Source of the DNA: an uncultured archaeon
GTDB taxonomy: Archaea; Thermoproteota; EX4484-205; JAAOZP01
DNA: 64,000 nucleotides
NCBI GenBank assembly: GCA_938045545.1
Contig: CALIBN010000002.1
Span: forward strand, 8,120-72,119
Direction of reading: 5' to 3'
The notes beneath the pieces are model-generated. The model was not told where the DNA came from. It searched no databases and was given only the letters and a program-made list of their open reading frames with translations. Positions 979-8,076 of the stretch are shown here, one piece after another. Positions within the stretch are counted from its first letter, which is position 1, and each line of letters starts with the position of its first letter. The position numbers were made by a program, and so were the translations under genes.

Positions 979-1374
979 TCATTTGCAACTCGTTACTTCC
1001 ATTCTCCTCGTACAGTAGTCTAAAGCGATCCTCATATTTTTTATTAGTTCTGTCCCTATGACTATTTCCTCAACCCCTTTTACGGTTTCTATGAAGCCGC
1101 TGAACTGGTTTTTAAGACTCGGTATAACTACCTCGCCGAATGTCCCAACGGACTGTATAGAGAGGGCATTGGCAAGAACGAGTTGTCTTTGCTCCGTGGA
1201 AAACTGGTCAAAAGAAAGCCCTTTGAAAACAGTCTCCGGTATGAGTAAGAATCCTTCAAACCCTGTGTCAAGCACGGCGATAACAGTGCCCTCGCTCGGA
1301 AAACTCTTGTTCATTACGGGATTCCTAATGATTATCTCCAGCACCGGAGTATCATCTAGAAAATAGGAATTCAT
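979..1374 (-). CDS. retropepsin-like (clan AA) aspartic protease, small archaeal type
   Basis: 131 aa; VLDTGFEGFLLIP contains D-T/S-G catalytic motif in a hydrophobic context typical of single-domain retropepsin-like proteases that dimerise. Confidence 0.55.
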   Translation of the reverse strand: MNSYFLDDTPVLEIIIRNPVMNKSFPSEGTVIAVLDTGFEGFLLIPETVFKGLSFDQFSTEQRQLVLANALSIQSVGTFGEVVIPSLKNQFSGFIETVKGVEEIVIGTELIKNMRIALDYCTRRMEVTSCK

Positions 1375-1382
1375 CTTCCCGG

Positions 1383-1727
1383 CTATGTGTGGCTGAGGGT
1401 TGGTCTCATTCTATACCCGCCGCGGACCACTGGCTTAATCGGCTTCGTCGACACTATTCTCAGGCCCCGCGGTTCAATGCCTCTGCTTTTTAAAATCGAC
1501 GCTAGCTCTTCTAGGGTACTGGCTTCCGCTACCACATTCCCCTCCCTAAGAGCTTTAAATACTGTTTTTTCGTAATCTGCGGATTTATCTAGGATCGCGA
1601 AATAATTCGTCAAAGCGTTTTCAATCACCTTTGACATTCCCCCTTTACTTGACCCGTATAAGCGTCTAACAATACTTCTAAGCTTCTTTTCAACATCGTC
1701 GTTAAGGGAGATCGTGATTGTGCCCAT
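1383..1727 (-). CDS. ribbon-helix-helix (CopG/Arc-like) small DNA-binding protein
   Basis: N-terminus MGTITISLNDDVEKKLRSIVRRL has beta-strand/helix pattern of RHH fold; 8 bp upstream of the aspartic protease gene on same strand. Confidence 0.45.
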   Translation of the reverse strand: MGTITISLNDDVEKKLRSIVRRLYGSSKGGMSKVIENALTNYFAILDKSADYEKTVFKALREGNVVAEASTLEELASILKSRGIEPRGLRIVSTKPIKPVVRGGYRMRPTLSHT

Positions 1728-1963
1728 ATTAATTTAATAGATATGTATGTCCTATTTAAACATTATTTCAAATCTCTGATTTTCCACAAATGATGCAAAA
1801 ACGAGCGTAAAAATAGACGAGCCACAGTATTTCACTGACATCTTAAAATAAGCAAAATCCTAATCCTTTAGTCTTCCGCTGAAAATGCTTTTATCAACTC
1901 TTTGTTTAAAAACATCGTGGAGAAAAGGATAAGATACATGGACAAGCTTGCTCATATAGATAG

Positions 1964-2314
1964 GAGGATGCTAATATAGAATCTTGGTTACCCTCCCAAG
2001 ATGAAGAGAGAACTTGATTAGCAATCTACAAGGCTTTTCAGGAGATAGTTGAAGCATTCTTTGACATGCTATCTATGAAACTCGACGAATTGAAAATACC
2101 CCCGAAGGACGATTATACTAACATTCTGTTAATTGAAGAAAAAGGATTAATCGATAAAGATACCTCCAGTATTCTAAGTGCAAACGGATTGAGAAATAGA
2201 CTTGTCTATAACTATAACAAAATATCAGACAAATTAGCGCTGGAATCGATAAAAACCCTCCTTCCCAAATTGGCTAAAATAAGGAAGGATTTAGAGTCAT
2301 GGACGAGTACATAG
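1964..2314 (+). pseudogene. HEPN/DUF86 (HepT-like) toxin-family gene, disrupted: in-frame TGA at 2015-2017, only ATG-initiated ORF is 2066-2314; catalytic His replaced (GLRNRLVYNY)
   Basis: C-terminal …ILSANGLRNRLVYNYNKISDKLALESIKTLLPKL matches DUF86 RNxLxHxY block except H->Y; upstream in-frame sequence LAIYKAFQEIVEAFFD resembles HEPN helix 2 but is separated by stop codons. Confidence 0.5.
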
Positions 2315-2522
2315 ACCTATACCAGTTATCCAGATTAAGGGTGTTTTAGCAATACTCCTATTCGGCTCTAAGGCGAAGGGAGAAACGATGATAAGAGATG
2401 CCGACGTTTGCATAGTTACACCAGAGGTTAACGATAAAGCAGGATTAATGCTAGACGTGTTCTTCAGGGTTAATAACCAGAAGTACGATATCTGGTTGTT
2501 TGAAGAACTTCACTCTATATGA
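2299..2522 (+). pseudogene. minimal nucleotidyltransferase (MNT/MntA-like antitoxin family), frameshifted
   Basis: ATG 2299 gives MDEYIDLYQLSRLRVF*; continuing in frame 0 gives …KGVLAILLFGSKAKGETMIRDADVCIV… (GS…DxD nucleotidyltransferase motif) to TGA 2520-2522; no start codon in the motif-bearing frame; overlaps HEPN stop. Confidence 0.5.
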
Positions 2523-2924
2523 AGGCTGAAATCATAAAGACCCACAAGGTAGTATGGTATAGAGATATAGACGAGCTTTATGACTATTTCGCTAACCTTA
2601 TGAAAATATGGAGAGACCAAGAAGTCAGAATTAGAACGTATATCAAAGAATTATAAAAGAGGCAGATCATAAATTGCTGGCCAACCGCTTAACGCATGAC
2701 GGAGGGAAATCAGGGTAGAAAAGAAAACTAAACACATTCTCATCGGAAACATCTTCTTCAAGTTGTAAACAGTAAAAAATGTTATTTATTTCTTAAGTAA
2801 TCTCTCCCACTAGCTCTGAGTCTTTCAATTTGGGATTTCTAGCCTTGTTCAAAGAGTCGATCGAATATACTGCAATCGTATTTAAATCGCTCACTTTAGA
2901 TTCAAGGTCTCAGCAACCATGTAG

Positions 2925-2996
2925 CGCGCACAAGCGGGAGTAAACGGGATTCATGCCGAGCAATTTCGGAATAAGCTGGCTCACGCTTACTGGTAA
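2925..2996 (+). pseudogene. fragment of a second HEPN/DUF86 gene (…EQFRNKLAHAYW*)
   Basis: Perfect RNxLAHxY HEPN motif at the 3' end of a frame otherwise full of stops; lies where the HEPN partner of the upstream MNT would be expected. Confidence 0.3.
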
Positions 2997-3046
2997 CTAA
3001 AGGATTGGAGTAAACTCGAAAATTCGTCCTTTCGAGCGCGTGAAGC

Positions 3047-3685
3047 CTATCTCCCAGTGGTCCAGATCCTCTGGAACTCCCTTTCGAGGGCCGTGGCCAG
3101 CTCCGCGCTTCGAATCACCAGCAAGTTCTCATTGTTATCTCGGTCTGCTGACGCAGTCCAATTGAAGCTGCCGATCAAGACTATGTGACCGTCGATTATC
3201 GCTACCTTGTGGTGCATGAGATTCGGGTTAGTGTCGTTCCTCACCTGGACTCCGGCTGCCTTCAGGCGGAAGTATTCGCTATACTTCGTAACTTGCTGCT
3301 CCTCGAACACGATCTTAACCTCTACCCCTCTTTGGTACGCAGCAAGAACCGCGTCGCCTATACTGTCGAGAGTGAAGCTATAGATCAGGACGTGGATGCT
3401 CAAGTTAGCCCTGTCCAGCCAGTGGATCAAGGTTGAAGCACATCCGCCCCTTGGAGAGAAGTAGACACCCAAGATTGAGACCTCAGGGACAGCTTCGGCA
3501 GCCTTCAGCGCTACTATCGTGGCGTTCAGCTCCTGAATCTCTTCATTCAGCCGCGAAATTTCGGCCTGAGCGGCACCTAGCTGAGACTGGAGGGAGCTGA
3601 TCTGAGATCCGGCGAGACCGAAGTATCCCAAGGCCACGCCGATTAGAAGCCCGCCAACGGCCAGCGCAATCACCTCATTTTTCAT
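3047..3685 (-). CDS. PLD-family (single HKD motif) nuclease, N-terminal membrane anchor plus coiled coil
   Basis: HHKVAIIDGHIVLIGSFNWT = HxK(x)4D(x)6GSxN motif; one copy only (Nuc/Zucchini-like dimeric nucleases); N-terminal hydrophobic helix ALAVGGLLIGVALGYFGLAG followed by heptad-like SSLQSQLGAAQAEISRLNEEIQELNATIVALKAAE. Confidence 0.7.
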   Translation of the reverse strand: MKNEVIALAVGGLLIGVALGYFGLAGSQISSLQSQLGAAQAEISRLNEEIQELNATIVALKAAEAVPEVSILGVYFSPRGGCASTLIHWLDRANLSIHVLIYSFTLDSIGDAVLAAYQRGVEVKIVFEEQQVTKYSEYFRLKAAGVQVRNDTNPNLMHHKVAIIDGHIVLIGSFNWTASADRDNNENLLVIRSAELATALEREFQRIWTTGR

Positions 3686-5596: not shown

Positions 5597-6769
5597 TTAA
5601 GCCTTACTGGCTCCGGCTTCGAATACCCAGCTATCAAGGTTTTTACAAATTAATGTAAGGATCCGCATAGACTCCTCCGGTCTCATGGCGAGAAAAAGCG
5701 CGGCAACATGCTTGCAGAACTGTTTTTGACCAATTCTTTTAACCCAGTCCTCACAGTCATGCTTCAGCCTCCTGTTAGGAATATTTATGATGACAGCGTA
5801 TTCCTTAACCCTAGCTTTAACCTTCTCCTCTCCAGCCTCCTCAACAACCACTTTCCCAACCAGTTCCCTCGCCCTCTCCAGCCTACCCACCTCAAGGAAG
5901 GCTGAGACCAGTTTCTCAATGTCTTTTTCACCTGAAGAAAGCACTGCTTCAACCCTGCGAACCGTCCTCCTTAAACCCTGCTCTTCAAAGTAGTTTAGAA
6001 CCCTGTTCAAAGCCTCCTCCTGAGGCTTTTCCATGACTCCGACGATTCTCATCATTTGAAGCGCGTTCTTCACCGCATATCCCCTGAAGTGGTTGTTAAA
6101 ATAGACGTAAACCTTCTTAGCCTTGTACGAGAGCTCCTCAAGCTTTCCCTTCCACTCCTCAAGCTCCTCAATCCTGTAATCGTAATAGTACCAAGGCCTG
6201 TTCCCCCTGCCGTGAAACCTTACGTATGAAAAATCTCCCGTAACCTTCAACAATGCAGGCAGAAGAGGCTCGTCGACAATACAGTAACCCACATTGTTCT
6301 CGGACAGAACCCTGAAAGACTCATCCATCAGCCAAGTCGGATGCCTGAACTCGACAGTAAAATCGTAACCTTCAGGAAGGCTTTCTAAGAACTCTTTAAA
6401 GCCTTTGAAGGCTGCAACAGGCTTGGGTGGAAGCTGGAAAAGCAGTGGCCCAAGCTTCCCGTCTTCCTTGAGAGGAGCCAGCGCACTCAGGAAGAGCTTT
6501 AAATCCCTCAGAGCACCCTTCTCCAAATCCATTAGTTTCACGTGAGTCACTGTTTTAGGAACCTTAAGGGAAAATACGAAGCCTTTCGGCGAGGACCTGG
6601 CAATAGTACGTATGAATCCCAGGTTAGGCTGTTTATAGAAGGTTGAATCCACTTCAACCGTCTTGAAAACATCCGCATACTGCTGGAACATTTTCTCACT
6701 ACTTGTGTAGAACACAGTTAGCCAATCCTTATAGCTCCAGCCCGATGTCCCTACAACAATATTATCCAA
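5597..6769 (-). CDS. DUF72 (UPF0759) domain protein with C-terminal SWIM-like zinc-finger segment
   Basis: N-terminal VGTSGWSYKDW…FYTSS is the DUF72 signature; C-terminal …CEDWVKRIGQKQFCKHVAALFL resembles SWIM CxH-containing finger. Confidence 0.55.
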   Translation of the reverse strand: MDNIVVGTSGWSYKDWLTVFYTSSEKMFQQYADVFKTVEVDSTFYKQPNLGFIRTIARSSPKGFVFSLKVPKTVTHVKLMDLEKGALRDLKLFLSALAPLKEDGKLGPLLFQLPPKPVAAFKGFKEFLESLPEGYDFTVEFRHPTWLMDESFRVLSENNVGYCIVDEPLLPALLKVTGDFSYVRFHGRGNRPWYYYDYRIEELEEWKGKLEELSYKAKKVYVYFNNHFRGYAVKNALQMMRIVGVMEKPQEEALNRVLNYFEEQGLRRTVRRVEAVLSSGEKDIEKLVSAFLEVGRLERARELVGKVVVEEAGEEKVKARVKEYAVIINIPNRRLKHDCEDWVKRIGQKQFCKHVAALFLAMRPEESMRILTLICKNLDSWVFEAGASKA

Positions 6770-7245
6770 CCCTTTAGAACATCTACTCTACGGGTGATAA
6801 ACTTTTAGTTGAATCTGACACTCCTATGACTAAAGCCAACTGGATTCCCGTCGTCGCCCTCGGGCCCACCATACCGGGTAAAGTGCTTTATGGAAAACGT
6901 ATACCGCGCGCTTTTCTTAGGTTACTTCTACTATAAGGCAGGCAGGAACCTTTTAGAACCTGTGACTACCATTTCAGCAACTTGTTCTTTAACATACCGT
7001 ATGTATGGATGTAGCCGGCGGCAGTATCCTTTAGAATCCATCCTTTTTTCCGGAATTCGCGTGCACTGGTTTTCCCAATGGACTCTGAAACCCCATATTT
7101 AAATCCAGATACTGATCCTTAGAAAGATTCGTTTAAACAAGCTAACCACATAGAGCAATTTAGAAGATTAGTATCAACCTCGTCTGCAATCTATCTAAAA
7201 TGTTATATAATCTGTTGTAAGCTTCTAAAAAGGTAGGGGTATTTA

Positions 7246-8076
7246 ATGGCTCTCGGAGAAAAAGTTATAGCTTTGCAACTGCTTAAAAAAAGGTTAGGGA
7301 TGCTCTGGGAATATTTAACAAGCCCCGATATAAAGGAAGTGGCTGAGAAGAAACTCGTCGCGATTCTCCCAGTAGGCTCGGTCGAGATACATGGACCCCA
7401 CATGCCGACTGGAACAGACTCCATAACTATTCGCGAGATAACTAGAATGGCCGCTGAAAAGGAGCCTGCAGTAGTTTTGCCTACGCTATACTATGTTTAT
7501 GTGCCTGAGAACCGGCATTTTCCTGGAACCATATCGCTAAGCGCTAGGACAATCCTTACTATTCTTGAGGAAATATGCGACGAGGTGGCGAGAAACGGTT
7601 TTAAAAAAATCCTTATTGTAAACGGTCATGGAGGAAACAATAATCTTCTAAGGGTTTTCCTGAGGGAAAGCCTGCATAAGAAGAAGGATTATACTATTTA
7701 CGCGTTAATTGAGCCCTGGTCATCAATAGAAGAGATTGCTGAGAAAATATGCGAGAGCAAGATAACTGGGCATGCTTGCGAGCGTGAAACCAGCATGGGG
7801 CTATACTTGTTTGAAAACCTGATTAAGATGGAGAATGTTAAGCATGAGGCGGAGATAGGAGGTACGAATCTGCCTGGAGTAGAGACGCCTGCCGACTGGC
7901 AGGCCTACGCGGTCCAGCTTTATCTCGGTGACCCTAGGCTGGCAACTAAGGAGAAGGGCAGAATCATGGTTGAAAAGCTTGTTGATTACGTGGCAGATGC
8001 TATAAGAAGGGTTAAGCAGGATGAGAGGGTTCCAGCGATACTCGACGATTTCTACAGGAAGGCCTACGGGCAGTAG
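7246..8076 (+). CDS. creatininase-family amidohydrolase (ArfB/creatinine amidohydrolase family)
   Basis: VAILPVGSVEIHGPHMPTGTD and IVNGHGGN metal-binding motifs of creatininase fold. Confidence 0.75.
   Translation: MALGEKVIALQLLKKRLGMLWEYLTSPDIKEVAEKKLVAILPVGSVEIHGPHMPTGTDSITIREITRMAAEKEPAVVLPTLYYVYVPENRHFPGTISLSARTILTILEEICDEVARNGFKKILIVNGHGGNNNLLRVFLRESLHKKKDYTIYALIEPWSSIEEIAEKICESKITGHACERETSMGLYLFENLIKMENVKHEAEIGGTNLPGVETPADWQAYAVQLYLGDPRLATKEKGRIMVEKLVDYVADAIRRVKQDERVPAILDDFYRKAYGQ

Follow-up and report, generated by a model that had tools for sequence, protein, structure and literature searches.

Thousands of bacterial and archaeal genomes contain annotated genes for cytoplasmic retropepsin-like proteases that consist of a single domain and have no known function. 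The family represented by the NCBIfam model TIGR03698 (AF_0612-family) is defined by a sequence model to which no function is assigned, and none of the descriptions that we found mentions a protein encoded upstream of the protease. Two kinds of described systems come close to the arrangement considered here, namely the type II toxin-antitoxin (TA) modules of the ribbon-helix-helix (RHH) type (TacA/TacT, ParD/ParE, MazE/MazF, CopA_SO), and pairs in which a DNA-binding regulator is encoded beside a dedicated protease, such as ImmR/ImmA (Xre-COG2856) and SpoIIGA/pro-sigma-E, the latter with a transcription factor processed by SpoIIGA, itself a retropepsin-like aspartic protease. Here we analyze two genes on the minus strand, between positions 979 and 1727, of a 64,000-nucleotide stretch from an uncultured archaeon of the phylum Thermoproteota (contig CALIBN010000002.1; hereinafter, the window), where a small partner protein with an N-terminal RHH domain is encoded immediately upstream of a TIGR03698 protease. 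This partner-protease pair is a recurring two-gene module in many bacterial and archaeal phyla, and the module is apparently widespread and undescribed: in a literature search, we found no paper describing the pairing, TIGR03698 or DUF5678, the Pfam domain to which the middle part of the partner is probably related; the only paper in the searched library in which the name DUF5678 appears deals with another topic.

The pair shares with the RHH type II TA modules the gene order and spacing, the N-terminal RHH and predicted disordered C-terminal segment of the first protein, and also the mobility, multiple copies and independence of genomic context. Unlike in those modules, which encode an RNase, an acetyltransferase or a gyrase poison, the downstream gene here encodes an aspartic protease; furthermore, the partner contains an additional folded DUF5678-like domain, and the bacterial versions lack RHH. 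The location of a DNA-binding regulator next to a dedicated protease is reminiscent of ImmR/ImmA and SpoIIGA/pro-sigma-E. The window pair is no ImmR/ImmA system, however, given that the regulator contains an RHH and not a helix-turn-helix domain and that the protease belongs to clan AA and is not a metalloprotease, whereas the difference from SpoIIGA is that the window protease, as judged from its sequence, appears to be soluble and not membrane-embedded. In contrast to both repressor-protease pairs, the DNA-binding domain is dispensable in bacteria, and no conserved mobile-element neighbours are seen around the pair.

Among other proteases, a single retropepsin-like domain with a DTG motif is also present in APRc/ApRick, the Rlo proteases of P. 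aeruginosa (TIGR02281-type), RimB and the Sulfolobales 'Asp_prot' (Saci_1895). The Rlo proteases are membrane-bound or secreted retropepsins (PMC12239564), and both APRc and Rlo differ from the window protease in being membrane-anchored or secreted and in lacking a DUF5678-like partner. The association of a small archaeal retropepsin with type III CRISPR in Sulfolobales (PMC3973734) shows that defence contexts are possible for the retropepsin fold; the window pair has no flanking CRISPR genes.

A sequence-only reading of the window had postulated a two-gene cassette with a DTG retropepsin-like protease, and this cassette is real. A 114-aa open reading frame (ORF) at 1727..1383 is followed by a 131-aa ORF at 1374..979; the two are in different frames, each with its own start codon, and are separated by a gap of exactly 8 nt between the upstream TAG (1385-1383) and the downstream ATG (1374-1372). 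Homologues of both ORFs span the range from 98% to approximately 25% identity, which indicates that both are real genes; the closest homologues come from metagenome-assembled genomes of Brockarchaeota and other Thermoproteota. The features of the locus are as follows.

979..1374, minus strand: protease gene, 131 aa, single-domain clan AA protease of the TIGR03698 family (profile match).
1261..1269, minus strand: catalytic Asp-Thr-Gly, D36-T37-G38 (read from the sequence and from family conservation).
1383..1727, minus strand: partner gene, 114 aa, with 17 close homologues, every one of them on a protease-carrying contig.
1386..1448, minus strand: partner residues 94-114, forming a C-terminal tail with predicted disorder and the motif R-x-G-[YWLF]-[RK] (VVRGGYRMR).
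1449..1565, minus strand: partner residues 55-93, predicted beta-beta-alpha-beta domain, probably DUF5678-related (AlphaFold2 (AF2) model and hhalign).
1572..1727, minus strand: partner residues 1-52, RHH domain with the strand MGTITISL and helices 10-24 and 30-52.
1728..1752, minus strand: stretch between the TATA box and the partner ATG, GGACATACATATCTATTAAATTAAT, candidate operator for RHH autoregulation.
1753..1760, minus strand: putative archaeal TATA box, read from the sequence as TTTAAATA; 25 nt separate it from the partner ATG.

The recurrence of the pair was assessed in a sample blind to the partner, for which one genome per GTDB species was scanned with a degenerate DNA pattern for the active site, x-D-T-G-[FY]-x-G-[FY]-x-x-x-P. 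The scan yielded at least 120 loci, nearly all of which encode true family members, and which, counted together with the loci collected earlier, amount to 127 protease ORFs. Directly upstream of the protease, 99 of these have a bacterial-type partner of approximately 90 aa, 13 have a window-type RHH partner and three have a partner of the RHH+DUF5678 type (L008, L009, L094 from a Heimdallarchaeote); six are located at the edge of the locus. Nine ORFs were missed by both partner profiles, namely the three RHH+DUF5678 loci and six others, among which L044 is disrupted by an insertion sequence, L098 is truncated, L123 has a partner variant missed by the profiles, L103 encodes an unrelated protein, and L014 and L020 are unexplained. 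Thus, approximately 115 of the 121 evaluable proteases (~95%) are preceded by a small co-oriented partner ORF. The unrelated protein in L103 (Cyclobacteriaceae), encoded by a minus-strand ORF at reverse-complement offsets 6794-7997 that extends to the end of the locus, comprises at least 400 aa and lacks a partner; by sequence reading, it appears to combine two pepsin-like lobes (DTGA and DTGF) with a signal peptide and, at the C-terminus, a PDZ-like region.

The same arrangement is found among distant relatives of the protease (24-46% identity) on metagenome contigs, where a small co-oriented ORF is located upstream wherever the upstream region is present. In L007-L011, L137 and L139, this ORF encodes an RHH followed by a small domain and the motif R-x-G-[YWLF]-[RK] or a looser variant thereof, and in L136 and L138, only the 3' end of the partner gene is on the contig, ending in the R-x-G motif. 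A third, word-indexed homologue search, with alignment A3, added four new proteins only. For all partner-linked proteases that were tested, bacterial and archaeal, TIGR03698 is the best match, at 38-82 bits. The module is scattered unevenly over more than 10 phyla, including Cyanobacteria, Chloroflexota, Planctomycetota, Acidobacteriota and other bacteria along with five archaeal lineages; the five named loci of the RHH type come from Brockarchaeota, Geothermarchaeota, Bathyarchaeia, Nitrososphaerales and Heimdallarchaeota. The family is not specifically archaeal, most of the members found being bacterial. The neighbourhood check for a recurring partner had been set beforehand as the test by which the cassette hypothesis could be refuted, and the hypothesis survived it; the expectation that the partner would recur as an RHH protein held for the partner but not for the RHH itself, which is limited to archaeal or archaeal-type loci, where it is present in every case in which the N-terminus of the partner is readable.

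The spacing of the two genes, measured between annotated or called gene boundaries, varies among the loci (+8, +6, +18, -4, +12 and +20 nt); in L008 and L009, the genes nominally overlap by 43 nt, a value that depends on the called start. The two ORFs lie very close to each other in different frames, and retroviral proteases arise by frameshifting, so a single frameshifted gene encoding a Gag-Pro-style polyprotein might be considered, as might fortuitous adjacency. We regard both as extremely improbable given the adjacency in ~95% of the evaluable loci, the separate start codon of each ORF, the variation of both spacing and relative frame, and the lack of fused proteins among 67 representative clusters; recurrence along with variable spacing and frame effectively excludes a programmed-frameshift polyprotein or chance adjacency.

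The sequence identities of the partner and the protease co-vary, with r = 0.90 over 45 locus pairs, which implies that the two genes travelled together. They did so through highly diverse surroundings. The 150 immediate neighbours in approximately 85 loci belong to 121 Pfam families, none of which is represented more than twice, and the pair is therefore a self-contained module without a third component. In close relatives of the window locus, the pair is intact and the flanks are different: the window pair is flanked by a fumarase and a HepT pseudogene, L001-3 by a GH42 glycosidase and a Usp protein, and L004-6 by a GFO/IDH oxidoreductase, a 469-aa protein and several MNT-HEPN and RHH-PIN modules. 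Ten cyanobacterial plasmids carry the pair, and four of these are conjugative, including pCC7120alpha of Nostoc PCC 7120, where the partner (WP_044523651.1, annotated as 'hypothetical protein') and the protease (WP_010999818.1) are encoded by genes that overlap by 4 nt in RefSeq. On pANSO36B of Nostoc commune, the pair is located among RelE/ParE, Uma2, PIN and DUF1156 genes; other TA modules are often found near the pair on this plasmid and in archaeal loci. Multiple or tandem copies per genome are represented by L068, L112, L012/L018, L028/L100 and L032/L125, and L044 and L098 are decayed copies. Two complete pairs are arranged in tandem in L068 (3655-4985; Chamaesiphon) and in L112 (5020-6484; Oscillatoriales). 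The pair is not virus-associated: it is absent from phage genomes, has no match in PHROGs, and is represented on contigs classified as viral by one genuine case, L135 (4954-5762; IMG/VR UViG_3300032174_000010).

These observations bear on the possibility that the protease is an ordinary cytoplasmic enzyme with a housekeeping or stress-related task and that the partner is its obligate accessory subunit, i.e., an assembly factor, an adaptor or a substrate recruiter, in which case no toxin-like behaviour would be expected and the archaeal RHH would merely provide transcriptional feedback. Such a role would be compatible with the tight linkage and co-divergence of the two genes, with the folded, conserved domain of the partner, with the lack of an assignment in defence or TA databases, and with the GC content of the pair (45%, close to the window average of 46.5%), which does not look like that of recent foreign DNA at this locus. 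Nevertheless, it seems unlikely, because the patchy spread, the multiple and tandem, plasmid-borne and decayed copies, and the lack of synteny even among close relatives are all unusual for a housekeeping function.

The assignment of the protease to TIGR03698 ('clan_AA_DTGF') is straightforward: the 131-aa protein, a single domain within the ~125-135 aa range of the family, scores 70.5 bits (E = 1.3e-19; curated cutoff, 57.35) over positions 2-107 of the 107-position profile, and no match to it was detected in a Pfam search. The active site reads D36-T37-G38-F39, in agreement with the DTGF/Y signature and the longer DTG[FY]xGF motif of the family. Among 47 diverse family members, D36, T37, G41 and P46 are conserved in at least 90%, and G107 is invariant; it belongs to the second retropepsin motif, in which two hydrophobic residues precede a glycine and which corresponds to ILGRD/N of retroviral proteases. 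When the profile of these 47 proteins was compared with the PDB, it retrieved the human retroviral-like protease ASPRV1 at E = 0.005 and the Rickettsia protease ApRick at E = 0.87; the segment 'VIGTELI' of the family profile was aligned in register with 'IIGTDVL', the second retropepsin motif of ASPRV1. The shallow profile A2, built from close relatives, had no match in the PDB. Reading of the sequence, without a predictor, showed no apparent signal peptide or membrane segment. Single-DTG retropepsins of clan AA must dimerise for activity. At the C-terminus (LDYC...C-K), the cysteines C121 and C130 do not vary within the close clade or among 14 sequences from the wider clade with RHH partners, and this cysteine pair is absent from the bacterial family members. 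These residues could form a disulfide or a metal site that stabilises the dimer.

The partner was modelled by AF2 with a mean predicted local distance difference test score (pLDDT) of 76.7. In this model, an N-terminal strand and helices 10-24 and 30-52 are followed by a beta-beta-alpha-beta arrangement spanning residues 57-93 (strands 57-61 and 64-69, helix 72-82, strand 90-93; pLDDT 75-89), and the pLDDT falls below 50 at residues 98-108 and 112-114 of the tail. The RHH-like character suggested from the sequence was borne out by the fold of the N-terminus, a strand and two helices that can be superposed on solved RHH proteins, with type II antitoxins as the best structural matches. The Pfam models did not recognize it: the window partner has no Pfam match at E up to 10, and its homologues show only sub-threshold matches to RHH_6, RHH_1 and FitA-like families. 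Outside the RHH part, profile searches of the PDB with both partner types detected no solved relative, and Foldseek comparison of the partner model with the PDB gave nothing better than E = 0.5.

The middle domain is probably related to DUF5678 (PF18929), a domain that itself has no known function. The Pfam threshold of 23.2 bits is exceeded by the partners of two distant relatives, L008 (24.6 bits) and L009 (32.5 bits), and the partner of L019 shows a faint direct match (E = 0.22), whereas neither the window partner nor the bacterial partners match directly. In hhalign comparisons, the C-domain of the window-type partners (alignment A1) was aligned in register with the long archaeal partners L008, L009, L094 and L139 (alignment A7), which include bona fide PF18929 partners, with P = 1.4e-4 (probability 53%) in one comparison and P = 8.5e-4 (24%) in another; A7 and the bacterial partners (alignment A5) were aligned with P = 1.5e-4 (probability 52%) over 68 columns, also in register. 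The bacterial partners, which belong to no Pfam family and lack a relative in the PDB, conform to the consensus EE.A.RG..IYE..IR..VE....GK.VAIDIETG.Y.V.D....A..RL....P.A.....RIG......FG, with an N-terminal helix, a beta-hairpin, a helix and a strand that ends in R-[IV]-G and is followed by [FY]-x-F-G. With moderate confidence, the conserved core of the partner can be described as a DUF5678-like domain with a glycine-containing C-terminal motif, to which the RHH appears to be an N-terminal addition. In L084 (5627-6212; Calothrix NIES-4105) and L124 (5550-6135; Dulcicalothrix PCC 7102), a single 194-aa ORF directly upstream of the protease encodes a tandem duplication of the partner, with two full units joined by a linker of ~20 aa.

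In the C-terminal tail, G104 and R106 of the motif VVRGGYRMR are invariant in the close clade, and R-x-G-[YWLF]-[RK] is found at the C-terminus of the archaeal-type partners L007, L010, L019, L056, L091 and L136-L138; the long-type partners L008/L009, L094 and L139 carry looser variants, such as RTIGFNARR and RTFGFGRR. We propose that the tail motif might be the segment that binds the protease. Alternatively, the partner could be the protease's own substrate, with a cut in the tail or in the linker between the RHH and the C-domain switching its activity; in archaea, cleavage would then set free or switch on a regulator of transcription, much as in SpoIIGA/pro-sigma-E or ImmA/ImmR. A conserved motif within a disordered tail would be favoured cutting ground for a retropepsin, the order of regulator and protease is that of the repressor-protease pairs, and the tandem partner of L084 and L124, with its linker following an FGG motif, could be a cleavable poly-partner. 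Still, in L010 (…RSGWK) and L091 (…RIGYRMK), the motif is only 1-2 residues away from the C-terminus, too near to accommodate the P4-P3' span of a usual retropepsin substrate; this speaks against cleavage at the motif itself only, not elsewhere in the partner. Moreover, there is no DNA-binding domain in the bacterial partners whose activity could be switched, and the multi-copy, plasmid-borne and context-independent state of the pair is hard to explain for a protease and its sole substrate. On balance, we consider the substrate role, although the strongest of the alternatives, rather unlikely.

Upstream of the partner gene, the putative TATA box TTTAAATA probably serves as the promoter of the pair. 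It is found at the identical distance in the relatives L001, L004 and L091, and TTTAAGTA takes its place in L010. The spacing of 25 nt between the TATA box and the ATG implies that both genes would be expressed as a single leaderless or near-leaderless transcript. The GGACATACATATCTATTAAATTAAT block is conserved between the window and L004, and the sequence farther upstream is not. Locus-specific repeats surround the TATA box in other loci, namely GATATC..GATATC in L008/L009 and two copies of ATATTGC in L019. For an AT-rich region, the identification of the block between the TATA box and the ATG as an RHH operator is only suggestive. A scan for sigma-70 promoters and terminators is uninformative for an archaeon.

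The reading that we favour, tentatively and at somewhat less than an even chance, is that the pair is a TA-like module in which the partner binds and restrains a dimeric protease, the archaeal RHH represses its own operon, and loss of the partner frees the protease. In this scheme, the protease would work as a homodimer, which the partner would bind via its DUF5678-like domain and tail and keep inactive or restricted; in archaea, an RHH dimer would bind the repeats around the TATA box and repress the leaderless operon. Loss, titration or degradation of the partner, be it under stress, upon loss of the module or during infection, would leave the free protease to cleave cellular or invader proteins. 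The linkage of the genes, the domain architecture, the conservation of the catalytic residues and the mobility are observed, and binding, inhibition, autorepression and toxicity are what we infer from them. The layout is TA-like because the partner gene comes first and the two small, co-oriented genes are tightly coupled, abutting or overlapping, as expected if the partner is the antitoxin. The partner is TA-like because it combines an antitoxin-type RHH with a specific domain and a predicted disordered tail, and a DNA-binding domain joined to a neutralising region is the usual layout of antitoxins; it also resembles modular antitoxins in that the C-terminal core is retained even where the DNA-binding module has been exchanged or is missing. 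The behaviour of the pair is TA-like because it is self-contained, mobile, present in multiple copies, independent of context and accompanied by decayed copies. A broader version, which we consider possible but doubtful, is that TIGR03698 proteases with DUF5678-like partners constitute a large, unrecognised family of TA or abortive-infection-type systems in many bacterial phyla and several archaeal lineages, Asgard included, where the R-x-G-aromatic tail of the partner would plug the enzyme or dock on it.

Several observations weigh against the TA-like interpretation. Aspartic proteases are, to our knowledge, not represented among the type II toxins, and none is mentioned in a 2009 survey of TA systems. 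No TA model for either protein is present in NCBIfam; in PADLOC, the protease only weakly matches PDLC01052 ('protease'; E = 2.6e-4), and the partner matches nothing; no defence-gene enrichment is visible among the 150 immediate neighbours. The bacterial partners (~100) have no RHH or other recognisable DNA-binding domain. Their homology to the window-type partners was argued transitively, via A7, because the direct comparison is not significant (E = 0.15), and the transitive profile P values are only on the order of 1e-4 to 1e-3. Many antitoxins diverge faster and are disordered over most of their length, in contrast to the partner, which contains a folded domain and is conserved to about the same degree as the protease. 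For the protease, AF2 modelling with the shallow alignment A2 reached a pLDDT of only 42, and the model is unusable as evidence for the fold. The pair is TA-like in architecture, yet is not classifiable on the present basis as a TA module, a class defined by growth arrest through the toxin and its neutralisation by a labile cognate antitoxin. The earlier suggestion of TA-like or defence-island cargo therefore stands in part: the architecture, the varying neighbours, the multiple copies and the plasmids agree with its TA-like half, and its defence-island half is unproven in view of the diversity of neighbour families, the weak PADLOC match and the near-absence from viral contigs.

Whichever interpretation applies, nearly every family member examined has a dedicated small partner, to which archaea fuse an antitoxin-type RHH, and this provides a concrete hypothesis. 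With the pair on pCC7120alpha, Nostoc/Anabaena PCC 7120 is a tractable model system. If the protease is a regulated toxin, it would be a new class of effector for TA and defence biology and the first aspartic-protease toxin; cytoplasmic prokaryotic retropepsins would thereby acquire a function, with a bearing on the control of retroviral-type proteases in the time before retroelements existed. A partner that turned out to be a substrate or a subunit would be the first specific interactor of this protease family and would still provide a context for DUF5678.

Several other genes and remnants are located near the pair in the window. The stretch 1728-3046, between the pair and a gene for a PLD nuclease, is AT-rich (37% GC, compared to 46.5% for the window), contains short ORFs only and looks like decayed accessory DNA. 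Within it, positions 1990-2314 on the plus strand contain a pseudogene of HepT, the HEPN RNase toxin. The match of its 82-aa ORF (2066-2314) to the HepT profile is limited to the C-terminal part (positions 49-117 of 120; 38.4 bits), with RNRLVY as the RX4H catalytic motif, and the frame extends upstream through in-frame stops; no ORF for an MNT antitoxin is left upstream of it. The PLD-family protein (PLDc_2, NucT/Nuc-like; 3047-3685, minus strand) consists of 212 aa, appears to be anchored in the membrane by its N-terminus, contains a coiled-coil segment and shows weak matches to the PLD models of DISARM DrmC and of DpdK. Finally, a 390-aa ORF on the minus strand (5597-6769) ends in a Cys/His-rich segment, HDCEDWVKRIGQKQFCKHVAALF, which, from the reading of the translation alone, resembles a SWIM-type zinc finger fused to a larger conserved domain.

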